DNA from: Clostridiales bacterium UBA1770
Lineage (GTDB): Bacteria; Bacillota; Clostridia; Oscillospirales; CAG-272
Assembly (NCBI GenBank): GCA_002315325.1
Contig: DCGU01000054.1
Coordinates: forward strand, 24,078-88,077
Direction: 5' to 3'
Length of the DNA stretch: 64,000 nucleotides
Shown here in pieces: positions 746 to 56,360 of the stretch. Under the pieces are notes generated by a model that searched no databases, had not been told where the DNA came from, and saw only the letters and a list, made by a program, of their open reading frames with translations. The translations under genes were made by a program, and so were the position numbers. Numbering within the stretch: position 1 is the first letter of the stretch; each line of letters begins with the position of its first letter.

Positions 746-2761
746 TTACGGCTTGTTTGCCGGTGCACGGCGATTGGTCAAGGCGGACAGCAAAATGCCG
801 GCAGCTAACAACAAGACAAGAATGCCGCCGAAAATCAGCGTCCATTTTTTGGAGGCATTCAGCGGTTCCCTGCCCGTTTTTTGGTCGGTTTTCGTGGGAA
901 CATCCGCCGTGTCGGGCACGTCTGTCGGCGTCACTGCGTCGGTGTCGGTGGCGGTAACGTCGTCGGGCAACGACGGGATATCGGTCCCCGTTACTGTTTC
1001 GTCAAATTCGGTCGGGCCGTCCGGTTGCGTCGGCACGTCCGGCGGCGTCTCATCTTCCGGGAGTGCGGGAATTTCGTATTCTTCCGTATACCCACAAATC
1101 AAACATTCGTTCCACGCCACCCCCGCAATCCCGGGCAACGGTTCACACAATACGGTCGGCGTCCCAAAGACGTGTCCCGCCGGGGGGATGACCGTCGGTG
1201 CAAGAATGACCGCACCGCAAACGGCGCAATGGGATCCTGATGACAATCCTGTTTCTTCACAGGTTGCGGGAACAGCTGCGTCTTTCACTGCCGAATGCCC
1301 GGCTGCAGGCACCGTTTTTTGTGCCGTCAACACCTTTCCGCAATAACCGCAGTGCGTTCCCTCGCCAAGACCCGTATCCACACACGAGGGGGAAACAGCC
1401 GTATCCGTCACCGGCACGTGGCTCAGCGCCGGCACCGATTTTTGTGCGGACAACGTGTTGCCGCAAACCGTACAGCGCGTTCCTTCGGTTAATCCCGCCC
1501 CCAGGCACGTCGGCGAAACTGCCGGCAATATCACGTAGGTATGGGGTATTTTATCCAAAACAACCTGTTTTTTGATGATGGTGCCGCAAACCGAACAGTG
1601 TACACCCTCCGAGAGCCCCGTACCGAAGCAGGTCGGTGTGACCGACGTATCGGTAACAAGCGTATGCCCGGCCATCGGCACGACAACCTGCGACACTGTA
1701 ATTTGTTTACAAACGGCGCAATGGTACCCCTCGGTAAGCCCCGTTTTCAGGCAGGTCGGTTGGAGTGCGGTATCCGTCACGAGTGAATGAACCCCCGTGG
1801 CTTCGACTGTTTGTTGAACAATGAGAATGGCTTTACATACGCTGCAGTGGGCGCCTTCCGTTGCCCCCGCTTCAACACAGGTGGGTTCGACGGCGGAATC
1901 GGTCACTGTCGCGTGTGCCGCCATAGCAACGGTTTGCTGCACGACCAGTACTGCTTTACAAACGCCGCAATGCGAGCCTTCGGTCAGTCCGGTTTTCTTA
2001 CACGTCGGTGCCACGGCGGCGTCAACCACAGGCGTATGCGCCGTCACGTCCACGGTTTGTTGCACGACCAGCACCGCATTGCAAACGCCGCAATGGGAGC
2101 CTTCGGTCAGCCCCGTTTTTTTACACGTCGGTTGAACGGCGGCGTCTGTCACCGTCGTATGAATGCCGGTGGCGGGGAGCACTTCCTGCGGGACGGTCAC
2201 CAACGTACAGGAAGAACAGTGCTGCCCTGCCGTTTTGCCGGATTTGACACAGGTGGGTGCCGCGGCGGCATCGTTTACCATATGATGAACGCCGGTGGCA
2301 AGAATTTCCTGCTGTGCGACAAGGATTGCCCCGCAAACGCGGCAATGACTGCCGGCGGTCAAACCGGGGCTGACACACGTCGGGGAGACAGCGGGGTCGT
2401 CCACGGGGACGTGAATGGTTTTTTTATCGGAACACGGACAATCTGCGCATTTATAGATTACGTAACCGTCCGAGTCCTCCGTTGCGGCAACGGAAGACTG
2501 CACGCCCCAATGATGTTCTTCCCTTTGCGTTGCATTACAGTCCGGGATTTCACAGGCGCGTTCGTGGAGCACGTAAACGTTTTGCTCGTCATTACTTATT
2601 TTATACCAGTCGCTCCATTGATGCGTACCGTCCGGGCAATCTGCCGAAACGGACAACGGCAAACAGACCGCAAAGAACAGCACGGCACAGAAAAAAGAGA
2701 TAAACCACAGTACTTTGCGCAATTGAGTGGCATTTTGATTGTTTTTTCTTATGGGAAGCAC
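746..2761 (-). CDS. Cysteine-rich tandem-repeat surface protein (signal peptide, ~11 x 41-aa H/C3 repeats, acidic P/T/D-rich stalk, C-terminal TM anchor)
   Basis: GTG start after an AAGGGGGA RBS and a signal-like N-terminus. The repeat is (A)GH-x8-PTC-x2-TGLTEG-x-HC-x-VC-x9-V. The C-terminus is WTLIFGGILVLLLAAGILLSAL followed by basic residues. No enzymatic motif recognised. Confidence 0.8.
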   Translation of the reverse strand: MLPIRKNNQNATQLRKVLWFISFFCAVLFFAVCLPLSVSADCPDGTHQWSDWYKISNDEQNVYVLHERACEIPDCNATQREEHHWGVQSSVAATEDSDGYVIYKCADCPCSDKKTIHVPVDDPAVSPTCVSPGLTAGSHCRVCGAILVAQQEILATGVHHMVNDAAAAPTCVKSGKTAGQHCSSCTLVTVPQEVLPATGIHTTVTDAAVQPTCKKTGLTEGSHCGVCNAVLVVQQTVDVTAHTPVVDAAVAPTCKKTGLTEGSHCGVCKAVLVVQQTVAMAAHATVTDSAVEPTCVEAGATEGAHCSVCKAILIVQQTVEATGVHSLVTDTALQPTCLKTGLTEGYHCAVCKQITVSQVVVPMAGHTLVTDTSVTPTCFGTGLSEGVHCSVCGTIIKKQVVLDKIPHTYVILPAVSPTCLGAGLTEGTRCTVCGNTLSAQKSVPALSHVPVTDTAVSPSCVDTGLGEGTHCGYCGKVLTAQKTVPAAGHSAVKDAAVPATCEETGLSSGSHCAVCGAVILAPTVIPPAGHVFGTPTVLCEPLPGIAGVAWNECLICGYTEEYEIPALPEDETPPDVPTQPDGPTEFDETVTGTDIPSLPDDVTATDTDAVTPTDVPDTADVPTKTDQKTGREPLNASKKWTLIFGGILVLLLAAGILLSALTNRRAPANKP
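1058..2413 (-). repeat. Coding tandem repeat, period 123 bp (41 codons), ~11 units
   Basis: Adjacent units reach near identity, e.g. 1932-2007 versus 2055-2130. Boundaries are approximate. Confidence 0.75.
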
Positions 2762-8932: not shown

Positions 8933-11527
8933 TTATCCAAGGTCTTTTTTTATTTCAAACAATAACGTCATCGCCTCGTACGGAGACAAGGTGTTAACGT
9001 CGGTGGACCGAAGTTTTTCAATGACGCGGTCCTGCATCATATCGTCCATACTGATAACGGATTCATCCAATAGCGGCTTATCGTTGCCGGTATCTGCCGC
9101 AGCGATGGCCATGGCCGTGGTTTCCACGGACTTGAGCACCTCTTTGGCGCGCTTGATGACCTCGTTCGGCAGACCCGCCAGTTTGGCGACCTCGATACCG
9201 TAGCTGTCGTCGGTGGAACCGCGCACAATCTTACGTAGGAAGATGATATCGTCACCGCGCTTTTTGGCGGCAATGTTATAGTTCACAATGCCCTCGAACT
9301 CGTCCTCCATGGACGTCAGCTCGTGGTAATGCGTGGCAAACAGCGTCTTGGCACCGATTTTTTTGCTGTGCGTGTATTCGACGATGGCGCGGGCAATGCT
9401 CATGCCGTCGAACGTGGACGTGCCGCGGCCGACCTCGTCGTAAACGATAAGACTGCGTTTGGTCGCATTTTTCAGGATATAGGCGACCTCGTTCATTTCC
9501 AACATAAACGTGGACTGTCCCGACGCTAAATCGTCGGAGGCACCGACACGTGTAAAAATGAAATCCACGACACCGATGCGGGCGTCGGCAGCAGGGACGA
9601 AGGAGCCGATTTGCGCCATCAGCACAATCAGCGCCACCTGCCGCATATAGGTGGATTTACCCGCCATATTGGGGCCGGTAATCAGGGCCAGGCGGTTACG
9701 GTCGGTATCCAAATAGGTGTCGTTGGGCACAAAATAGGATTCCTTAACAAACTGCTCGACAACGGGATGACGGCCGTCCTTGATATCGATGACGGGGCAT
9801 TCGTCCACTTCGGGGCAGACGTATTTATTGCGTGCGGCCACCGACGCCAAGCTTTCGTACACGTCGAGTTGGGCCAACAGGAACGCAGCCTTTTGAATGC
9901 GTTCCGAAGCGGCGGAAACACGGCCGAGGATTTCCACGAAAAGCTCGTATTCCAGGCCGCGGATTTTTTCCTCGGCGCCGAGAATCGTCGCCTCCATATC
10001 TTTGAGTTCCTGCGTGATAAAGCGCTCGGCACCCGTCAGCGTCTGTTTGCGGACGTAACGGTCGGGCACCTGATCGAGCAGGGAGCGGGTCACTTCAATG
10101 TAATAGCCGAAAACCTTATTGTAACCGATTTTCAGCGTTTTGATGCCGGTTTTTTCGCGTTCTTCCTCGGTCATGCGGTCAATCCAGCCCTTACCGTCGT
10201 TCATAACGGAACGCAGATAATCGACCTGTTCGTCGTAGCCGTCAGCGATAAAACCGCCCTCACGCAGTGAAAACGGCGGCTCGATTTTAATGGCGCTGTT
10301 GATATCGGCGCAAACGTCCTCGAGCAAATCCATGTCTTCGCGAATGCGGCAAAGTTCCGCCGAGGTGCAGCCCTCCAACTGTTTTTTGACGTCGGGCAGT
10401 ATGGCGAGCGTGGCGGAAATGGCGCGCAAATCCTTGGCGTTGGCGGAGCCGTATACGACACGGGTAACCAAGCGTTCCATATCCAGTACGTTTGCAAGCA
10501 GCGTGCCGAGTTCGTGCCGCAGGATATAATTGCCGAACAGCTCGTTCACGGCGCCCTGGCGTGCGGTGATGGCCTTGACGTTCAACAGGGGCCGGTCAAT
10601 CCAGCGGCGCAAAAGGCGCGCGCCGGCGGCCGTATGGGTCTTATCCAACACCCACAAAAGCGTCCCCTTCTTTTCCTTGGTCCGCAGCGTTTCGGTGAGT
10701 TCCAGGTTGCGGCGCGTGTTGATATCCATATTCAGATACTGCCCGCCGGTATACAGCTGCAGTTCGCGGATATAGGACACGTCGCCCTTTTCCATTTCAC
10801 GGATGTATTGCAGCAGCGCACCGACGGCGGGACACAGCAGCGTATCCTCCAAAACCGATTCGCGGACGTTGCCGCCGAACTGTTCGGTGACGAGTTCGCG
10901 CGCATGCTTGGTATCGTAGCGGGTCCTCTGGTTATCGGCGAGCATGGCGCCGAGGCGTTCACGCACCAGCGTCGTGACGTTCGGGAAAGCAGAGGCCTCC
11001 AGGTTCATGAGCACTTCGCTCGGCGCGTAGGTGCCGAGTTCGTTGCACAAACTGCCCTGCCAATCGCCGCCCTCAAAGGACGTGGCGTAGACGACCGGTG
11101 TGGACACGTCGGCAAACGCAATGCCGCAGCCGTTTTCGGTCAGATACAGGGCACACAGATAGTTGTTCTTTTGGTCGGTTAACAGATTCGATTCCAAAAT
11201 GGTGCCGGGGGTCACGACGCGAATCACTTCACGTTTGACCAGGCCCACTGCCTTGGCAGGGTCCTCGGTTTGCTCGCAAATGGCAACCTTGAAACCTTTT
11301 TCTATCAGTTTTCCGATATAGACCTCGCAGGCATGGAACGGCACGCCGCACATGGGGGCGCGTTCCTCTTCCCCGCAGTCTTTGCCGGTCAACGTCAGGT
11401 CGATGGCCTTCGACGCAATTTTGGCGTCCTCATAAAACATCTCGTAAAAGTCGCCGACACGGTAAAACAACAGATAATCTTTATATTGATTTTTGATTTC
11501 AAAATACTGCTCCATCATCGGAGTCAT
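8933..11527 (-). CDS. mutS: DNA mismatch repair protein MutS
   Basis: MTPMMEQYFEIK N-terminus, Walker A GPNMAGKST and FATHYHEL. Confidence 0.97.
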   Translation of the reverse strand: MTPMMEQYFEIKNQYKDYLLFYRVGDFYEMFYEDAKIASKAIDLTLTGKDCGEEERAPMCGVPFHACEVYIGKLIEKGFKVAICEQTEDPAKAVGLVKREVIRVVTPGTILESNLLTDQKNNYLCALYLTENGCGIAFADVSTPVVYATSFEGGDWQGSLCNELGTYAPSEVLMNLEASAFPNVTTLVRERLGAMLADNQRTRYDTKHARELVTEQFGGNVRESVLEDTLLCPAVGALLQYIREMEKGDVSYIRELQLYTGGQYLNMDINTRRNLELTETLRTKEKKGTLLWVLDKTHTAAGARLLRRWIDRPLLNVKAITARQGAVNELFGNYILRHELGTLLANVLDMERLVTRVVYGSANAKDLRAISATLAILPDVKKQLEGCTSAELCRIREDMDLLEDVCADINSAIKIEPPFSLREGGFIADGYDEQVDYLRSVMNDGKGWIDRMTEEEREKTGIKTLKIGYNKVFGYYIEVTRSLLDQVPDRYVRKQTLTGAERFITQELKDMEATILGAEEKIRGLEYELFVEILGRVSAASERIQKAAFLLAQLDVYESLASVAARNKYVCPEVDECPVIDIKDGRHPVVEQFVKESYFVPNDTYLDTDRNRLALITGPNMAGKSTYMRQVALIVLMAQIGSFVPAADARIGVVDFIFTRVGASDDLASGQSTFMLEMNEVAYILKNATKRSLIVYDEVGRGTSTFDGMSIARAIVEYTHSKKIGAKTLFATHYHELTSMEDEFEGIVNYNIAAKKRGDDIIFLRKIVRGSTDDSYGIEVAKLAGLPNEVIKRAKEVLKSVETTAMAIAAADTGNDKPLLDESVISMDDMMQDRVIEKLRSTDVNTLSPYEAMTLLFEIKKDLG

Positions 11528-41354: not shown

Positions 41355-43181
41355 TTATTCCACCGTCACGCTTTTGGCCAAATTTCGCGGTTTATCCACG
41401 TCGCACCCGCGCTGCACCGCAAGGCAATAGGCATAATACTGCAAAATAATGACCGCCAAAATCGGCAGCGTCATTTCGTTCGCCGCCGGCAATCGAATCA
41501 CCTCGTCGGCACAGTCCGCGGGAATCTCCATTCCCTGCCCGCACAAAAGAATCACGCGGGCACCGCGTGCCTTGACTTCCTTGGCATTGGACAGGGTCTT
41601 TTCCAAAAGTGCCGCCGACGTGGCAACGACGATACAGGGCACCCCGGGCGTAATCAGCGAAATCGTGCCGTGTTTGAGTTCCCCGGCAGCGTACGCTTCA
41701 CTGTGTACGTAAGAAATTTCCTTGATTTTTAACGCCCCCTCACAGCAAACGGCATAATCCTGTCCGCGGCCGATGAGAAACGCATCGGGAAGATTGCCGT
41801 GCTTTTCGGCAACCGCGGCCGCGCTGTCAAACAGGGCAAACGTTTTTTGCACGTCATCGGGCAGCGTTTCAAGCGCCCGGCAGAGTTCCTGCTCCCGTTG
41901 CGGGGACAACTGTCCGTTTTCATGCGCCAGGCGCAGCGCCAACAGCAGCAGCACGGCAACCTGCGCCGAATATGCCTTGGTGGTAGCCACGGCAATTTCG
42001 GGACCGGAATAGAGATAAATCACGTGATCCGCCTGTCTGGCAATGGACGAGCCAACCACGTTGACAACGGCATACGTCGGCACGCCTTTGGCCTTTGCCA
42101 GCCGCAGTGCCGCCAACGAATCGGCGGTTTCCCCCGATTGCGAAAGGATAAAAACGGCATCCCCCTGTGTAAAAATGGGATTGCCGTACCGGAATTCACT
42201 GGCAATCGCAACCGACACGGGAATGCGTGCCAACCCTTCGATGGCGTGTTTGCCCAAAAGCCCCGCATGCATGGCGCTGCCGCAGGCGACCAACGTCACG
42301 TGCTTGATCTTTTGCAGAGCGTCATTCGGTATTTCCCGCGACAAAATCTCACGAATACCGCCGGCAATACGCCCGCCGACGGCGCGACGGAGCGCTGCGG
42401 GCTGCTCCATAATCTCTTTTAACATAAAATGCGGATAACCGCCTTTTTCGGCACTTTCCTCGTCCCAATCGGCAACAATCACCTGTTTTTGCGCCGTAAT
42501 ATTCTTCCCGGTATCATCGTAAACCGTCACGCTGTCCCGCGTCACGCAGGCAATTTCGCCTGCTTCCGGCAGCAAATACCGCCGCGTGTGTGACAGGATG
42601 GCGGGGATATCGGAGGCAACAAGGTTTTCGCCCGTTCCCAAGCCCAAAATCAGCGGGCTGTCCCGCCGCACAGTCCATATTTCCCCCGGACGATCGGCAA
42701 ACAACACCGCCAGGGCATAGGAACCCTTTATCCGCTGCATGGCTGCCGTCAATGCGGCACGTGCGTCGCCCGTATACGCCTCATCCAGAACGTGCGCCGC
42801 AACCTCGGTATCGGTCTGCGACAAAAACGTACGTCCCTGTGCGAGCAGTTTTTCCTTCAGTTTTGCATAGTTTTCAATAATCCCGTTGTGCACCAGCGTC
42901 ACACGACCGCAGGCGTGCGGGTGTGCGTTCGCGTCAGACGGCTCGCCGTGCGTGGCCCAGCGCGTATGACCGATGCCGACGCACCCCCGTATGGGTTGCC
43001 CGCCGGCAATTTTATCCTTTAGGTTTGCCAGCCGCCCCTGCGCCTTTTCAACGCGTATTCCCTGCGCGGTTACAACGGCAATCCCGGCCGAATCGTACCC
43101 GCGATACTCCAATTTAGACAGTCCTTCCAATAAAATATCCGACGCTTCCTGTGCGCCGGTGTATCCAATGATTCCGCACAT
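41355..43181 (-). CDS. glmS: Glutamine--fructose-6-phosphate aminotransferase
   Basis: MCGIIGY N-terminus (start moved to 43181), two SIS domains and a C-terminal ...KSVTVE. Confidence 0.97.
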   Translation of the reverse strand: MCGIIGYTGAQEASDILLEGLSKLEYRGYDSAGIAVVTAQGIRVEKAQGRLANLKDKIAGGQPIRGCVGIGHTRWATHGEPSDANAHPHACGRVTLVHNGIIENYAKLKEKLLAQGRTFLSQTDTEVAAHVLDEAYTGDARAALTAAMQRIKGSYALAVLFADRPGEIWTVRRDSPLILGLGTGENLVASDIPAILSHTRRYLLPEAGEIACVTRDSVTVYDDTGKNITAQKQVIVADWDEESAEKGGYPHFMLKEIMEQPAALRRAVGGRIAGGIREILSREIPNDALQKIKHVTLVACGSAMHAGLLGKHAIEGLARIPVSVAIASEFRYGNPIFTQGDAVFILSQSGETADSLAALRLAKAKGVPTYAVVNVVGSSIARQADHVIYLYSGPEIAVATTKAYSAQVAVLLLLALRLAHENGQLSPQREQELCRALETLPDDVQKTFALFDSAAAVAEKHGNLPDAFLIGRGQDYAVCCEGALKIKEISYVHSEAYAAGELKHGTISLITPGVPCIVVATSAALLEKTLSNAKEVKARGARVILLCGQGMEIPADCADEVIRLPAANEMTLPILAVIILQYYAYCLAVQRGCDVDKPRNLAKSVTVE

Positions 43182-43279
43182 TATTTTCACCTTTGCCGTA
43201 TAAAAACGGCCCTTTGTCAAGTCAATAAAGCCTGCGGCATTTCGTCAGGGCGACGTTTGTCTGCAGACTTTTTCAATAT

Positions 43280-43426
43280 TCATCATTTCCGTTTGTGCCT
43301 TTGTTGGGCAATTACTTGCCGTTTTTCTCACAAACTCACGGTGAAATGATACCGAAGGGCACCCGCCGAATCTTTCGATAAACCCTTCCCTCGTCAACCG
43401 CGGTGAAATTACGGTCCCGGCGCTAT
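43280..43426 (-). ncRNA. glmS: glmS ribozyme (GlcN6P-responsive self-cleaving riboswitch) in the glmS leader
   Basis: Minus strand reads A/GCGCCGGGACC...GACGAGGGAAGGGUUUAUCGAAAGAUUCGGCGGGUGCCC...AUCAUUUC...GGAAAUGAU. This is collinear with the B. subtilis ribozyme core (AGCGCC, GACGAGG, UAUCGAA, UUCGGCGG, UGCC). The 3' boundary is approximate. Confidence 0.88.
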
Positions 43427-43539
43427 GCAATATCGTCCGCCTCACTTTTATTGTCCGGCAGTCCTGCATTCTTTTTTGCCGCGGCTTTCACTCCTTTCGA
43501 CCCGCGGTGAACGCAATCATTATACGAAATTTGTTCGTC

Positions 43540-49029: not shown

Positions 49030-50537
49030 GCGTCGTCCTCCATCCGCTTTGCCGACAGACCGAACACCGTGAAGTCAATCACACCGGTGCGGAGCCCACC
49101 GCGTTCGTTGATAAAGCGCAGGCGCACCTTTTCGCACGGCACTGCCGGGAACGTATCGTAGGCGATATTCATCTCCGCCGTATTATCCATCTTATCCAGT
49201 ATCGTAAACCACGCGCCATGCGCGTACCCCTGTAGTGCATAGTGAACGGGAGCGGGCAACACCCCCTTGGCATAATCCAAACCGACGTCGCGCCAAAAGA
49301 CGCGCAGGGCACCCACGGCAAAGGAACCCGACAGGTCGCATTCCAGCCACGGTTCGGCATCGTCATCGGCAGGCTGCCAGAAGGACAAATTGTTTTCATC
49401 CGTGGCATAAACGGGATCACGCCCCTCGCGGCTGCTTGACGCAGTCGGGCGGACCGCCGCGCACAGGGAAAGTGCGCCGGGCGTTGCATCCGGCGTCAGT
49501 TTTGCGGGGGAAACACCCGGCACGTATTGCGGCACGTCGCTGACGCCGATGGGACAGTACAACTCGCCGTTTTCGTCCACGTCCACACGGTCCATGCCGA
49601 TGCGGCGCTCGTAGCGATGCAGGTACGGGGCGGCAATCGTGAAAAACGCCCACAGCGTATTGCCCGACCCGTGCTCCACACAGCCGTGTCCGGCACCGGC
49701 CACAATCCCGCCGCGGTGGAAGGTCAAGGGATTGCGCTTTTGCGGTTTGAAGTCGTCCAACGGCGACACGTCGCTGACGTACACCGCCATACAGTAGGAG
49801 GCGTCACAGGTATCGGGTGCGGCGTAAATCAAATAATAGCGGCCGTTGTGCTTGAGCATATGCGGGCCCTCGCACCAACCGAAATCAATCTCTTGGCCAT
49901 ACAGCCCGTGCCGTTCCCAGGGTTTGTTGACCGGATCCATATCGATGAGCGTCACGGGGCCGCGTACAACCTGCCGCGGATTTTCCACGTCCAATTCATA
50001 CCCGATAATGCGCAGGCCGAACCCCTCGAAGGTATCGGGATTTGGGGGGCAGTCCACAGCGTACAGATACAACCGTCCGTCGTCATCGGCAAAAATACCG
50101 GGGTCGCCCGGCACGAATGGCGTGCCGTCCGGCATCATAAAATCGCCGAGTTCCGTGAAGGGGCCCAGCGGGTCGTCCGTCACGTAGAGCGGGCAGCACC
50201 AGGACGTCATCAAATATTTGTCACGCCAACGGCAAATCGTGGGGCTGTATTTGGGATTGTAGGGAGTCGTTCTTTTGTGCTCCCAGTGCTCAAAGTCCGA
50301 CGTCACCCACGCCATACCGTAACTGGGATAGAGATACCATTTGCCGTTTTCGTAAAAGACGGTGGGGTCACTGATGGAACGATAGTCGGGGCCCGTCACG
50401 TTTTCCGGCTTGCCGGTATCACCGAGTATACCGTGCGTTGCGTTCATCCAGTCATCCGTGCCGCGCGGGAGTTCCGGCAGCGACAGGGGGTTGCAATAGG
50501 TATGGAGACAAAAATCTTTTTTCTTTTTTTGATTCAT
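49026..50537 (-). CDS. GH43 family glycoside hydrolase with a C-terminal F5/8-type-C (discoidin/CBM32-like) domain
   Basis: SISDPTVFYENGKWYLYPS beta-propeller motifs and a C-terminal NLSFWQP...ALRVFW. Start moved to ATG 50537. Confidence 0.78.
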   Translation of the reverse strand: MNQKKKKDFCLHTYCNPLSLPELPRGTDDWMNATHGILGDTGKPENVTGPDYRSISDPTVFYENGKWYLYPSYGMAWVTSDFEHWEHKRTTPYNPKYSPTICRWRDKYLMTSWCCPLYVTDDPLGPFTELGDFMMPDGTPFVPGDPGIFADDDGRLYLYAVDCPPNPDTFEGFGLRIIGYELDVENPRQVVRGPVTLIDMDPVNKPWERHGLYGQEIDFGWCEGPHMLKHNGRYYLIYAAPDTCDASYCMAVYVSDVSPLDDFKPQKRNPLTFHRGGIVAGAGHGCVEHGSGNTLWAFFTIAAPYLHRYERRIGMDRVDVDENGELYCPIGVSDVPQYVPGVSPAKLTPDATPGALSLCAAVRPTASSSREGRDPVYATDENNLSFWQPADDDAEPWLECDLSGSFAVGALRVFWRDVGLDYAKGVLPAPVHYALQGYAHGAWFTILDKMDNTAEMNIAYDTFPAVPCEKVRLRFINERGGLRTGVIDFTVFGLSAKRMEDDA

Positions 50538-50675
50538 TGTGGACGTCACCGCCTTTTTGCTTGGTTGACGTCATTATACCACATTTTACGATGCGATACC
50601 ACACCCGCAACTCATTTCATTTTGTCGTCGTTATTCTGCACAAAACACACGCCCGATTTTTGTGCTTTTTATCCA

Positions 50676-50704
50676 TTGGCAGTATCACAAAAATATGATA
50701 AAAT
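50676..50704 (+). promoter_or_regulatory. Extended -10 promoter for the solute-binding protein gene
   Basis: TTGGCA, 17 nt ending in TGA, then TAAAAT. Confidence 0.55.
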
Positions 50705-50762
50705 AATATCGCTTGAAAAAGACACACAAAGCACATTTTACATCATAAACGAGGAGGAACAC

Positions 50763-52319
50763 ATGAAAACCATGCGCAAATTACTGGCTCTCATTCTGGC
50801 GCTCCTGATGGTTGCCGGGACGCTCTCACTCGTTGCCTGCGGCGGCGAAACAGATCCCGAACAAGGCAAAAAGGATGACCCCATCGATACCCCGGATACG
50901 CCGGACACACCGGATACACCGGATACCCCCGACACGCCCGACACGCCTGATACGCCGGATACGCCCGACGATCCCACCGAAACCAAAAAGTACCTGGACA
51001 ATATGCCCGAGACGATGGACTTCGGCGGTGAAACCGTTACGTTCCTCATCAGCAGCGATAACGGAGAAGCAACGTTCGTACTGATTAAAGACGAAAACAA
51101 CTATAACGACGGCGACGCGGTTGAACACGGTATTTATACCCGCCAGCAGAATCTGCAGGAACGTTTGAACGTCACCATGAGTATGGTGGAAGATGAATCC
51201 TCCGGCATCAAGGCTAAAATTCAGGCCGAAATCGACAGTGGTACCAACGATTACGATATCGTCATCGGTGACCTGAAGCAGCACGTCGGCTACTGCATCC
51301 AAAACGGCATTCTGAATATGAACAAGCTGTCGAACGTAGATCTGACGCAAAATTACTGGAACAAAACCTACTCCGATAAATGGGCCTACAAGACTTCCCA
51401 ATATTGGGCTACCGGCGACGCCTCCGGCACGCTGATTAAATTGACAATGGGTATGGTTGTCAACGACGCCCTGTTTGAAAAATACAACTCCGGCGTTGAC
51501 ATCTTTGAGGTTGTCAACAGCGGTGAATGGACCACGGAAAAATTGATTGAATATACGCAGACCTGCTTTGAAGACAAGACCGGTGACGGTGCAACCGAAG
51601 ATGACGTATACGGTCTTCGTTTTGCTAATGCATGGACCACCGGCGGTACGTTTATGCGCGGTGCCGGCTGGGCTTCCACCGTCGAAGGCAAATCCAAATG
51701 GAGCGTTGAACTGGCAGGCGAACACAACCTGGCTGTTTACGAAGCCGTTAACAAAATGCTGTTCCAAAACAACGGCGCTAAGATGGTCAACAGCACAGCC
51801 TTCGGCAATGAGCTGTGCATGATGTGTACTGAAATGCTTGGTGCATTGTCCTCCATGCGCGATTTTACGTTTGATTTCAGCTTCATTCCCTGCCCCAAGT
51901 ACAGTGCGGAAGACGATTACCGTGCCTACACCTTTGAGGGTTTGGGTATCGTCGGGTGTCTCGGCACTCTGCCTGCTGCTAAATACGAAATGGTCGGTGC
52001 AGCAATGGAATGCTATGCATCCATGGGTAAACAGTACGTGACCGAAGGTTACTACGAAATCGCTCTGCGTACCAAATACGCCCGCAACAGCGGTTCCTAC
52101 AAGGCCATCGAACTCGTCCACGACGGTATCTGGGCCGATATGGGCTTTGCATGGTGCGGTTCCCTTTCCGAAATTGACACTTGGATCACCGGTGTTATCT
52201 GTTCCCAGAGAAACTTGGCAAGCGCTGCTGCATCTGATCAAGCAGCCTACCAAAAACTGCTGGATCAGGTTTATACGAACCTGAAGAAACAGAACGACAA
52301 GGATAAAGAAGCAGGTTAA
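50763..52319 (+). CDS. ABC-transporter extracellular solute-binding lipoprotein (family 1, carbohydrate-type), orphan
   Basis: GAGGAGG RBS and lipobox LSLVACGG, then a (DTP)n linker and a large SBP body. The upstream part of the 930-aa track ORF is antisense to GH43 and I discarded it. Confidence 0.82.
   Translation: MKTMRKLLALILALLMVAGTLSLVACGGETDPEQGKKDDPIDTPDTPDTPDTPDTPDTPDTPDTPDTPDDPTETKKYLDNMPETMDFGGETVTFLISSDNGEATFVLIKDENNYNDGDAVEHGIYTRQQNLQERLNVTMSMVEDESSGIKAKIQAEIDSGTNDYDIVIGDLKQHVGYCIQNGILNMNKLSNVDLTQNYWNKTYSDKWAYKTSQYWATGDASGTLIKLTMGMVVNDALFEKYNSGVDIFEVVNSGEWTTEKLIEYTQTCFEDKTGDGATEDDVYGLRFANAWTTGGTFMRGAGWASTVEGKSKWSVELAGEHNLAVYEAVNKMLFQNNGAKMVNSTAFGNELCMMCTEMLGALSSMRDFTFDFSFIPCPKYSAEDDYRAYTFEGLGIVGCLGTLPAAKYEMVGAAMECYASMGKQYVTEGYYEIALRTKYARNSGSYKAIELVHDGIWADMGFAWCGSLSEIDTWITGVICSQRNLASAAASDQAAYQKLLDQVYTNLKKQNDKDKEAG
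50886..50966 (+). repeat. 9-bp coding tandem repeat GAYACNCCN (Asp-Thr-Pro), about 8-9 units
   Basis: Read directly. It encodes the post-lipobox linker of the SBP. Confidence 0.85.
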
Positions 52320-52471
52320 TCTACCGCTATCATTTGCAGCGGGAGACGATTTCGTCTCCCGCTGTTTTTCGTCACACGGTTGCAGTACTTATTCTTTTGG
52401 TATATAATATATCTAACGAAACGGCGTGCGTGAAGCGCACCGTATTACCATCGATAAAGAAGGGCAAAACG

Positions 52472-53110
52472 ATGAAAACAATTTTATTTATGGGCGACTC
52501 CATCACCGACGTCGGCCGCAATACCAATAACGGCAGCCAGATTTCCATAGGACAGGGATATCCCCTGCTCGTTACCGGCCGCTTGGGCGTCAAATACCCC
52601 GGGCAGTTCAACTTTGTCAACACCGGTGTCAGCGGCAACCGCGTGGTCAACATTTACGCCCGCATCAAGGCGGACGTGTGGAACTATGCCCCTGACGTAC
52701 ACAGCATCCTGATCGGTGTCAACGACGTATGGCACGAGCTCAACGGCAACGGCGTGGAAAACGACCGTTATGACGCCGTATACCGCATGTATATCAGCGA
52801 CACCTTAAAGCGCTTCCCCAATATGAAGATCATTATCATGGAGCCCTTCGTGCTGCACGGCAGCGCCACCGACGAGCATTGGGATATGTTCGAGCCGGAA
52901 GTGGCCCTGCGCGCCGCAACGGCCAAAAAGATTGCCGCCGACTTTGGCCTATCCTTCCTGCCGTTGCAGAAGATGTTTGACGATGCCTGCAAGATTTGCC
53001 CGGCAAGTTACTGGCTGGCGGACGGCGTGCATCCGACGCCGGCGGGGCATCAGTTGATTGCAGATGCGTGGCTAGATCTTTTTGAGAAAGAAATTGTGAA
53101 GGGGCTGTAA
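52472..53110 (+). CDS. SGNH/GDSL hydrolase (esterase/lipase)
   Basis: FMGDSITD (block I), GVSGN, GVND and DGVHPT blocks. Start moved to ATG 52472. Confidence 0.88.
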   Translation: MKTILFMGDSITDVGRNTNNGSQISIGQGYPLLVTGRLGVKYPGQFNFVNTGVSGNRVVNIYARIKADVWNYAPDVHSILIGVNDVWHELNGNGVENDRYDAVYRMYISDTLKRFPNMKIIIMEPFVLHGSATDEHWDMFEPEVALRAATAKKIAADFGLSFLPLQKMFDDACKICPASYWLADGVHPTPAGHQLIADAWLDLFEKEIVKGL

Positions 53111-53308
53111 AAAAAGCGCCGACCGGAAAAGCAGATTTATTATTTTGTTTTATTACGTGCAACGCTTGTTGTTTTCAAGATTTTTTCATCTCTTTAAGAG
53201 ATAGCGGTATAAGACTTGCTTTTCCTACCGCCGTTTCCCTCCCTCGCAGTACAGAGTACAGCTAACGGGAGGGAGAACGACGCTTCTGCATCTTTTTTTC
53301 CAAGCCCC
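53101..53308 (-). repeat. Structured inverted-repeat element, copy A (208 bp, inverted relative to B-D)
   Basis: Aligns end to end with copies B-D. One terminus (GGGGCTGTAAAAAAAG) overlaps the last 3 codons and stop of the GDSL gene. Confidence 0.85.
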
Positions 53309-53311
53309 TTC

Positions 53312-53341
53312 GGAGCTGTAAAAAAGCGCCGACCGAAAAAA
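53312..53341 (+). repeat. Solo copy of the element terminus (GGAGCTGTAAAAAAGCGCCGACCGAAAAAA)
   Basis: Near-duplicate of 53102-53131, located immediately after copy A. Confidence 0.7.
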
Positions 53342-53358
53342 CTCTTTTCTCAGATATT

Positions 53359-53402
53359 AAAAAGGTGTTGGTAAAACGATTGTTTTACCAACACCTTTTT
53401 TG
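53359..53402 (+). terminator. Intrinsic terminator (probably the original GDSL-gene terminator, now displaced)
   Basis: AAAAAGGTGTTGGTAAAAC/GTTTTACCAACACCTTTTT stem. Confidence 0.75.
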
Positions 53403-53415
53403 CTAACGCTTTTAT

Positions 53416-53619
53416 GGTGCTAGGGAAAAAAGTGGCAGAATCGTCGATCTTCCAACGCCAGACGTACCCAAGTACGTCAAGTGGGAAATCGGCGATAGGA
53501 AAAGCGCGTCTTTGAGCGTGATTTCTTATATTTTATAATCAAGTTGAAGACGCAACAAGCATTGAACAAGATATAAATAATCTTTTGGCTTTTCCGATCT
53601 GACCTTTTTTCACAGCACC
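53416..53619 (+). repeat. Structured inverted-repeat element, copy B (204 bp, most divergent)
   Basis: Termini are GGTGCT...AGCACC. It ends 2 nt from the stop codon of the S51 peptidase gene. Confidence 0.85.
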
Positions 53620-55287: not shown

Positions 55288-55540
55288 GGGGCTAGGAAAA
55301 AAAGATGCAGAATCGCCGTTCTCCCTCCCACTAGCTGTACTGAGTACTGCGTGGGAGGCCAGCGGAAGGGACCCCCGCAATGCACGAACGTGCGTTGTGG
55401 GGATACGCAGACGGCGGTAGGAAAAGCACGTCTTTTTACGTGATTTCGTTTGCTCAATATATTTATGAGATATGCGTATAGTGTTGCACAAGATATACTA
55501 TACTATCTATGCTTTTCCGGTCGGCGCTTTAATAAGCCCC
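55288..55540 (+). repeat. Structured inverted-repeat element, copy C (253 bp; carries a 53-nt nested hairpin insertion)
   Basis: Same architecture as A, B and D, with an extra segment at 55359-55411. Confidence 0.85.
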
Positions 55541-55541
55541 A

Positions 55542-55749
55542 GGGGCTAGGAAAAAAGGAGTCAGAATCGTCGTTCTTCACCCCGTTAGCTGTACATCCGT
55601 ACTGCGAGGGGTGAAAACGGCGATAAGGAAAGCACGTCTTTTACCTTGATTTCGTTTACTGATTTTGACATATATAATTACATTAAGTGTTGACCAAGAT
55701 AAAACAAATCATTCTTTGCTTTCCTGGTCTGGCCCTTTTTTACAGCCCC
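55542..55749 (+). repeat. Structured inverted-repeat element, copy D (208 bp)
   Basis: Abuts copy C with a 1-nt gap. Its terminus CTTTTTTACAGCCCC overlaps the last 3 codons and stop of udk. Confidence 0.85.
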
Positions 55750-56360
55750 GTTATTTTATCCTTTAGTAAAGCCCACAACATCCCAAACGCCGCCTCATTC
55801 TTCCCGCCCTGCCGGATGATGATATCCGCATACTCGCGTGAGGGTGCCACGAACAGGTCGTGCATGGGTTTGACGGTGGTTTCATATTGCAATAAAATGG
55901 ACTCCAGTGAACGCTGCCGCTCTACCATATCGCGGCGAATGCGGCGAATCAGGCGGATATCGTCGTCGGTATCCACGAATACCTTAACGTCCATATGGTC
56001 CCGCAGCCGCTCGTCGGCCAAAATCAAAATACCGTCGATAAGGATAACGGGCTTGGGCTCAATCCGCACGAATTTGTCGGAGCGGTTGTGTATTGTAAAA
56101 TCGTATACCGGGCAATCCACGGCCTCGCCCCGCTGCAGCGCCTCCAAATGCGTCAAAAGCAGTTCGGTTTCGTAAGCGTCGGGATGGTCATAATTGACCT
56201 TGGCGCGCTCGTCGTAGGTTTTACCTACCTGGTGTCGGTAATAATTGTCGTGATAAATCAGGGCAACGTCGTTGCCGAATGCGGCAACGAGACGGTCGGT
56301 CAGCGTTGATTTGCCGCTGCCGGTACCGCCGGCGACGCCGATAATCAGGGGTTTCTTCAT
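55740..56360 (-). CDS. udk: Uridine kinase
   Basis: P-loop GVAGGTGSGKST and a DHPDAYE region. Confidence 0.92.
   Translation of the reverse strand: MKKPLIIGVAGGTGSGKSTLTDRLVAAFGNDVALIYHDNYYRHQVGKTYDERAKVNYDHPDAYETELLLTHLEALQRGEAVDCPVYDFTIHNRSDKFVRIEPKPVILIDGILILADERLRDHMDVKVFVDTDDDIRLIRRIRRDMVERQRSLESILLQYETTVKPMHDLFVAPSREYADIIIRQGGKNEAAFGMLWALLKDKITGL

Follow-up and report, generated by a model that had tools for sequence, protein, structure and literature searches.

A probably mobile, MITE-like repeat with maintained base-pairing next to stop codons in uncultured Clostridia

Four copies of an element of ~205 nt lie inside 2.7 kb of the window, that is, the whole 64-kb stretch of DNA analysed here. 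The original prediction had described the differences between these copies as paired substitutions that keep the stems intact, and had argued from them for a functional RNA or single-stranded-DNA fold. The locus thus raises the question of whether base-pairing is indeed maintained in the element and, if so, which process maintains it. The set of four copies was agreed upon by a repeat finder, a four-way alignment and an nhmmer profile, with no further copies in the window, and a 20-nt core pattern matched exactly the four copy positions, against 0.04 matches expected.

The window is otherwise ordinary core chromosome, encoding RNase Y, mutS, mutL, tgt, miaB, ileS, queA, miaA and glmS. It also contains a glmS ribozyme (Rfam RF00234, 86.7 bits) at 43281-43435 (minus strand), upstream of glmS (41355-43220), and a 930-aa ORF with no Pfam match (49527-52319, plus strand) located directly upstream of the GDSL-lipase gene. 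Furthermore, seven copies of a 123/126-nt periodic repeat (1350-2278) are found within a 671-aa ORF (746-2761, minus strand), again with no Pfam match, whose product looks like a candidate repeat-domain protein outside the Pfam families.

When each intact copy of the element was folded separately, the same three-way junction was obtained. The unit ends are inverted repeats (GGGGCT..A-run / T-run..AGCCCC, and likewise GGGGAGAGATAAAAAAG / CTTTTTTAGCCTCCCC in the copies from human-gut-type contigs described below), and they pair to form P1, which comprises a terminal 6 bp, a bulge, the A-run/T-run and, innermost, a GC-rich segment. The hairpin P2, 25-30 bp long, starts CGTCG...CGGCG and carries the tip G..GTAC-loop-GTAC..C, and P3 (GGAAAAGC/GCTTTTCC) encloses ~80-100 nt of AT-rich variable sequence. 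Fold z-scores relative to dinucleotide shuffles were -7.3 for copy B, -8.2 for copy D and -4.3 for copy C; the reverse complement of copy B reached -5.4, both strands therefore folding strongly. The copies, their parts and the neighbouring features are listed below by window position.

53101..53308, minus strand: copy C, a complete 208-nt unit, with the GDSL-lipase TAA (53108-53110, plus strand) inside its 3' end
53312..53344, minus strand: 'solo' 3' module (GAGTTTTTTCGGTCGGCGCTTTTTTACAGCTCC), 33 nt, immediately 5' of copy C
53359..53401, no strand assigned: bidirectional terminator hairpin common to the convergent GDSL and S51 genes, given as context and lying outside the repeat
53416..53619, plus strand: the flagged element (copy B), complete at 204 nt, with its 3' end 2 nt from the S51 peptidase stop codon
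53416..53439, plus strand: 5' strand of P1 in copy B (terminal GGTGCT, A-run, GGCAGA), with its partner at 53598-53619
53440..53496, plus strand: hairpin P2 of copy B, with closing pairs ATCGTCG/CGGCGAT, the bulged C and the tip GACGTAC-CCAA-GTACGTC
53498..53506, plus strand: 5' strand of P3 in copy B (GGAAAAGCG), with its partner at 53587-53595
53507..53586, plus strand: interior of copy B within P3, AT-rich and variable, with a TTGAAC box and the promoter-like hexamers TTGAGC-16-TATAAT
53587..53595, plus strand: 3' strand of P3 in copy B (GGCTTTTCC)
53598..53619, plus strand: 3' strand of P1 in copy B (TCTGACC, T-run, then CACAGCACC)
55288..55540, plus strand: copy A, 253 nt, in tandem with D, with an insert that breaks P2 and a degenerate 3' T-run (TTTAATA)
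55359..55410, plus strand: 52-nt hairpin-forming insert in the P2 3' arm of copy A, unique in the window
55542..55749, plus strand: copy D, a complete 208-nt unit, with the uridine kinase TAA (55740-55742, minus strand) inside its 3' end

The solo module at 53312..53344 looks like a unit with a heavy internal deletion, and the core of the insert in copy A, CCCCGCAATGCACGAACGTGCGTTGTGGGG, is itself a hairpin. The terminator hairpin at 53359-53401 is flanked by copies C and B, the 5' end of each facing it. The AT-rich interiors (53507-53586, 55428-55512 and 55634-55717; in gut copies, for example, L119:2130-2230) vary but retain small boxes. In the window copies the box is TTG(C/A)(A/C)C, and the interiors of the gut copies hold a GGAATCCGnnAGGATTCC hairpin and TATACTAAAG, which corresponds to TATAAT on the gene-sense strand, without a complete promoter.

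Inspection of the stems bore out the paired changes. The terminal stem reads GGGGCT/AGCCCC in three copies and GGTGCT/AGCACC in copy B, as had been described. The long hairpin CGTTCTCCCTCCC/GGGAGGGAAACG is also present, but it belongs to the minus-strand copy at 53101-53308 and not, as its label 'A' had implied, to the copy at 55288; the latter has the same 5' arm, and its 3' arm is split by the insert at 55359-55410. Copy D carries CGTTCTTCACCCC/GGGGTGAAAACG with the three double substitutions that had been reported and with the bulged C retained, the position of this C being kept among the window copies. Copy B shows the T-A to A-T swap and a fully paired tip (GACGTAC/GTACGTC), whereas GCTGTAC/GTACTGC, with its T.T mismatch, forms the tip in the remaining copies. 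The figure of at least six compensatory events turned out to be conservative, since our recount yields at least ten; extra double changes are found in P1 (alignment columns 10, 16, 19 and 20) and in the stem GGAAAAGC/GCTTTTCC, which is AGGAAAGC/GCTTTCCT in copy D. Moreover, end changes are mirrored inside single copies (GGTGCT/AGCACC, GGGGAG/CTCCCC and GTGAAG/CTTCAC), a pattern that would not be expected were each end just an independent protein-binding site.

Relatives of the element were found by searching translated spurious ORFs, one reverse-complement frame of the element being often open. A profile of these ORFs gathered 89 protein clusters from ENA and JGI metagenomes (P0189-P0277; 49-125 aa; motif FSLFLPPKIASAVRLYGDVTIFDASASFLSLP), all of which are translations of the element. 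Three of the 89 clusters, together with the neighbours of locus L119, were followed to DNA; all the relatives come from metagenome assemblies, which are error-prone at repeats, and their hosts are 'Clostridia bacterium' MAGs. A pattern scan of metagenome DNA retrieved one true relative, L119, on a 391-kb human-gut contig. The scan of the genome collection used a 20-nt degenerate pattern that was too loose and gave at least 115 chance matches, and nhmmer detected no true copy among the matches listed. Viral contigs scanned with three patterns gave 0 matches, and BLAST against plasmids and phages gave no match either; thus, the element is not obviously phage- or plasmid-borne. Four further chromosomal sites were identified in human-gut-type metagenome contigs.

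L119, L127 and L148-L157: array after a PucR-like regulator gene
L158-L167: array after purA
L168: array after a flavodoxin gene
L169: array after atpC

The surroundings of two of these arrays hold other features: an rRNA operon (16S, two tRNAs, 23S; L168:10885-15820) lies ~580 nt beyond the array after the flavodoxin gene, and a ZTP riboswitch (L169:11917-11997) is located upstream of a formate-tetrahydrofolate ligase gene. At tandem-unit junctions (L119:2325-2345; L158:9917-9921 and 10142-10146; L168:10043-10084), a local hairpin could form in which the 3' terminal strand (..CTCCCC) of the preceding unit pairs with the 5' terminal strand (GGGGAG..) of the following one across a linker of 4-5 nt (GCAA, GCAAA, GAAAC, GAATC or GAGTC). 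Such a hairpin would be a rival to long-range P1.

Across the family the unit measures ~204-220 nt. Gut and window copies have three blocks in common (AAAAAAGATGCAGAAGCGTCG, CGGCGGTAGGAAAAGC and GCTTTTnCGGTCGGCGCTTTTTT) as well as the GTAC tip, and their stem sequences differ. In a second subfamily (L158:9699-9916 and others), AAAATCG/CGATTTT takes the place of the A-run/T-run and almost all of P2 is replaced, the architecture being retained between subfamilies with an almost wholly different stem sequence. None of the 17 copies departs from the P2 tip (G..GTAC-loop-GTAC..C) or from the common junction nucleotides, which points to a putative sequence-specific recognition added to that of shape. 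A protein-coding reading was considered and rejected: the reverse-complement frame is often open (..LFLPP..DASASF..KKRRPK), but its stops vary by copy and the variation runs pair-wise, not codon-wise. The ORFs over the copies are short and lie in differing frames.

Covariation was assessed in three alignments. In a hand-registered alignment of seven rows, consisting of the window copies and three gut copies, 93.2% of the cells were paired, compared with 40-49% when partners were slid, and 20 of 57 pairs showed two-sided change, compared with a shuffle mean of 10.4; the observed value was reached by 0 of 500 shuffles. A hand-registered alignment of 17 copies from five genome backgrounds had 94.6% of its cells paired and 31 of 57 pairs covarying (11 in P1, 15 in lower P2, one in the tip and four in P3), with a covariation score of 0.312 against 0.106 for shuffles, these counts including copies from one background, which are non-independent. 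Because the first two alignments had been fitted by hand, a third, structure-blind test used 11 natural full-length copies as aligned by MAFFT, with no manual adjustment. From this alignment RNAalifold recovered P1, P2, P3 and an interior hairpin (64 pairs, 34 of them compensatory). The paired fraction was 91.5%, compared with 40-50% for slid partners, and 34 pairs covaried, compared with 9-18 when slid, a result matched by 0 of 500 shuffles. Covariation therefore stands above the shuffle and slid-partner controls in all three alignments, and on this basis the claim that base-pairing is maintained in the element holds; given maintained pairing, the element would exist as a folded single strand. 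This part of the original prediction was strengthened by the added copies, whereas its 'functional RNA' part was not, neither a promoter nor a discrete transcript being inferable.

The position of the element relative to genes is equally regular. Its 3' end points towards the upstream gene's stop codon at every one of the seven sites. The distance to the stop is 4 nt at most at six sites, overlaps included, as detailed below.

GDSL lipase gene (window): stop falls within the element
udk (window): stop again falls within the element
S51 peptidase gene (window): element 3' end 2 nt from the stop
purA: element 3' end 4 nt from the stop
Flavodoxin gene: element 3' end 1 nt from the stop
atpC: 1-nt overlap of the element 3' end with the stop
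PucR gene: element 3' end ~52 nt from the stop

The stops of the GDSL-lipase (52334-53110, plus strand) and uridine-kinase (55740-56360, minus strand) genes fall inside the repeat 3' end (GGGGCTGTAA), and consequently the element encodes the ...GL with which both proteins terminate. A canonical terminator hairpin was located beyond the array at all five sites searched, namely the two flanking 53359-53401, L158/L162, L168 and L169. Thus, the units fill the interval between stop and terminator and are co-transcribed as the reverse complement, and the terminators are not replaced. Furthermore, copies C and B are mirror-oriented around their common terminator, which indicates that orientation follows the local gene and not replication.

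The element has the properties of an insertion, and its arrays differ between strains. The PucR-to-ftsE spacer measures 595, 453 or 303 nt, with differing unit content, among strains whose PucR is ~99% identical, and it measures 94 and 25 nt, free of the element, in species at 82% and 69% identity. The purA array holds two or three units depending on the sample, and its two-unit form would be best read as a deletion between direct 3' modules. For L158, two other readings were discarded, namely a target duplication of 25 nt and integration of the Campbell type at the 3' module, the difference between L158 and L162 being better read as a deletion between direct repeats. Many contigs break off within arrays, and part of the strain 'polymorphism' could be metagenome assembly error.

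Degenerate forms are also found, comprising short forms without the P3 module, 5' halves, solos, the insert-bearing window copy A and a chimera. This chimera (L168:10085-10304, minus strand) joins a main-subfamily 5' half to a subfamily 2 3' half inside the GTAC-loop-GTAC tip; P1b and P2 are lost, and it folds at -69.9 kcal/mol, compared with -80 to -98 for intact units. It could be a product of recombination or an assembly artefact. As to the insertion site, no consistent direct repeat that would represent a target-site duplication was found at the element boundaries, and 7 of the 14 outer boundaries carry TA, for a background of 4-8%, which may be taken as a weak hint of a TA target. No empty site was found for the three insertions of the window, the nearest S51 peptidase orthologue being 79% identical and non-syntenic. 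Neither a transposase nor a recombinase gene was found in the 64-kb window, and no transposase was found in the relatives' loci that were read.

We favour, with a probability of about 0.58, the reading that the element is a non-coding, non-autonomous, MITE-like mobile repeat of uncultured Clostridia, of which the folded single strand and the fixed nucleotides are recognised by a trans-acting enzyme, lineages that lose pairing ceasing to spread. It shares with MITEs its small non-coding unit, its terminal inverted repeats and its dispersed copies with presence/absence polymorphism (seven independent sites). According to this model, the element would pass through, or act as, a folded single strand, and a trans-acting protein would recognise its shape together with a few fixed nucleotides. 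The recogniser would most probably be the mobilising enzyme, encoded elsewhere in the genome. Copies with unpaired ends or stems would stop spreading, so that the lineages that survive would display mirrored changes. By landing in the stop-to-terminator interval, the element would be co-transcribed as its reverse complement in the upstream 3' UTR, and it would be tolerated there. Since the family is dispersed, insertion-polymorphic and decaying, a host function is no more likely than either the repair of a folded intermediate or a folded form on which mobilisation depends. The strict stop-ward orientation, however, would not be expected of a simple cut-and-paste MITE.

The fold could instead serve a role at the RNA level. 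In this alternative, the co-transcribed reverse complement would be a cis-acting 3'-UTR RNA, either a stabiliser of the mRNA 3' end or an auxiliary terminator, and selection on the host mRNA would keep the pairing; the proposal is compatible with the main account, spread by transposition being possible under both. The element starts 0-52 nt past the stop at all seven sites, always in the same orientation, and it is therefore certainly within the upstream transcript. P1, whose GC stem has an A-run on one side and a U-run on the other, fits such a role, as do the strong folds on both strands and a loose terminator scan, which flags a hairpin with a T-rich tail at the distal unit end on the gene-sense strand. 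The same CDS 3'-end preference is seen in SPRITE of S. pneumoniae (PMC3049150). Nevertheless, the canonical terminators have not been replaced, the orthologous genes of related species do without the element, and disrupted, truncated and chimeric copies persist. Moreover, G.U exceeds A.C (55 vs 13 cells; 17 vs 7 positions) on the strand that runs antisense to the upstream gene and is absent from the mRNA, and that strand folds better in 10 of 13 intact copies, the reverse complement folding better in the other three. A clean strand assignment from the 55-to-13 ratio was not retained, given these three copies. On balance, we consider a 3'-UTR function of this kind unlikely.

More doubtful still is the proposal that the mobile element is specified by its structure, with a three-way-junction single strand (DNA or RNA) as the enzyme substrate, the shape and the GTAC tip/junction being read, and with polar insertion just after the stop and upstream of the terminator. 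If this were true, insertion would be coupled to transcription or translation termination, and the 3'-end fragments and 'solos' would represent abortive copies made from the 3' end.

The paired changes might also have arisen with no structural selection at all, if template switching or mismatch repair in quasi-palindromic DNA homogenised the arms of a neutral repeat. Quasi-palindrome correction acts at short arm spacing; the arms of P2 are just 3-60 nt apart and so within its range, and many copies are visibly decaying. Nonetheless, P1 and P3 covary equally strongly although their arms lie 100-200 nt apart, and the architecture is shared by subfamilies with nearly no common stem sequence. In addition, imperfections are fixed in position across diverged copies rather than corrected, among them the A18 bulge, U.G at two positions, the T.T mismatch and a U.G/C.A exchange. 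These position-conserved imperfections and the distance between the P1 and P3 arms also speak against simple arm-to-arm gene conversion, which the original prediction had itself raised as an alternative. Mechanical homogenisation is thus highly improbable.

The weakest alternative, a multicopy gene for an independently transcribed structured sRNA on the '+' strand, antisense to the 3' end of the upstream gene, agrees with the better folding of that strand, the G.U excess, the conservation of two U.G pairs and of junction nucleotides, and a weak promoter-like site (TTTACA-18-CATCAT) ending 14 nt before copy A, but it is scarcely credible in view of the absence of a consistent promoter upstream of copies B, C, D and the gut copies, the head-to-tail abutting units, the deletion forms that miss whole domains, the lack of an Rfam relative, and a copy number and position that vary between strains. 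An internal promoter was considered as well and found no support: the hexamers seen in copies A and B do not recur in C, D and the gut copies, and the TATACT/TATAAT box of the gut copies comes without a -35 element.

The tight, oriented placement 0-4 nt past stops is a regularity that could lead to the mobilising enzyme or to a role at the mRNA 3' end. In housekeeping genes, the units alter the final codons as well as the 3' UTRs. They also interrupt metagenome assemblies and give rise to spurious ORF calls, translations of the element making up at least 89 public protein clusters. The translated-ORF search provides a cheap route to non-coding repeats that are invisible to DNA pattern scans.

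Comparison with known families returned likenesses but no membership. A search of the window and six loci against Rfam (release 15) gave no match to the elements at the gathering score, and at E<=10 it gave just chance miRNA-like matches, on the neighbouring terminator. Among described repeats, bcr1 of the Bacillus cereus group is ~155 bp long, with a cruciform-like fold of two stem-loops and 5-bp direct repeats; its distribution varies between strains, compensatory changes keep the fold, and some copies are destabilised (Okstad 2004 and Klevan 2007, as reviewed in PMC3184786). Like bcr1, the element is a small, non-coding, dispersed Firmicute repeat with a multi-branched predicted fold, compensatory changes and decayed copies. 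Compared by published description, it differs in its length of ~205-220 nt, its end-closed three-way junction, the lack of a clear target duplication, its strict stop-proximal orientation and its host group.

The SPRITE, BOX and RUP repeats of S. pneumoniae are MITE-like, structured and shorter than ~200 bp, and they are enriched downstream of CDSs and between convergent genes (PMC3049150). SPRITE has A-run/T-run ends, lies near CDS 3' termini and consists of a single 18-bp duplex with a U-rich tract, BOX is modular with optional internal modules, and all three are AT-rich and confined to pneumococcus and S. mitis (PMC3049150). The element resembles SPRITE in its A-run/T-run ends and its CDS 3'-end preference, and BOX in its short and full modular forms. 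Its hosts, however, are Clostridia and its stems are GC-rich, which set it apart from the three families as judged from their published descriptions. To our knowledge, a covariation-supported three-way junction has not been reported for SPRITE, BOX or RUP.

REP/BIME sequences are single hairpins of 20-40 bp, one end of which bears an unpaired tag (GTAG or CGTC); they are extragenic, mostly downstream of genes and clustered, and they form sub-families with complementary stem changes and G.T pairs (PMC3733652). The element shares with them a P2 that starts CGTCG and the GGTAG that follows P2. Membership was rejected, as the element is ~205 nt long with three helices, its CGTC is paired within P2 and no RAYT gene was seen. 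In the Correia (NEMIS) and ERIC repeats of Proteobacteria, the terminal inverted repeats pair in co-transcribed RNA and affect mRNA processing (PMC3184786, PMC3049150). Paired terminal inverted repeats, insertion beside genes and a possible TA target are common to these repeats and the element, but Correia and ERIC are simple long hairpins from another phylum. We know of no orientation rule relative to stop codons for either of them.

The PATEs derived from IS200/IS605 carry subterminal hairpins at both ends, have no terminal inverted repeats and require a fixed 4-5-nt target 5' of the left end. The element was not assigned to them, since it has terminal inverted repeats and one off-centre hairpin, and its left flanks have no common tetranucleotide. 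The integron attC site is a recombination site conserved in structure and variable in sequence, its recognised form being a folded single strand in which extrahelical bases are conserved. Membership in this class was also rejected: the ends show no R''/R' core (RYYYAAC/GTTRRRY), and there are no cassette ORFs between units. Unlike attC sites, the units abut or are inverted, with both orientations within 300 nt in the window, and no integrase is encoded nearby. By analogy, attC would nevertheless be the best precedent for a protein that selects shape over sequence. In summary, the repeat family is previously uncatalogued, and its kind is already known from bcr1, REP, BOX, RUP and SPRITE; with it, uncultured Clostridia associated with the gut and with animals contribute a well-supported, covariation-rich family to the few bacterial dispersed repeats with a demonstrably conserved fold (bcr1, REP and BOX among them).
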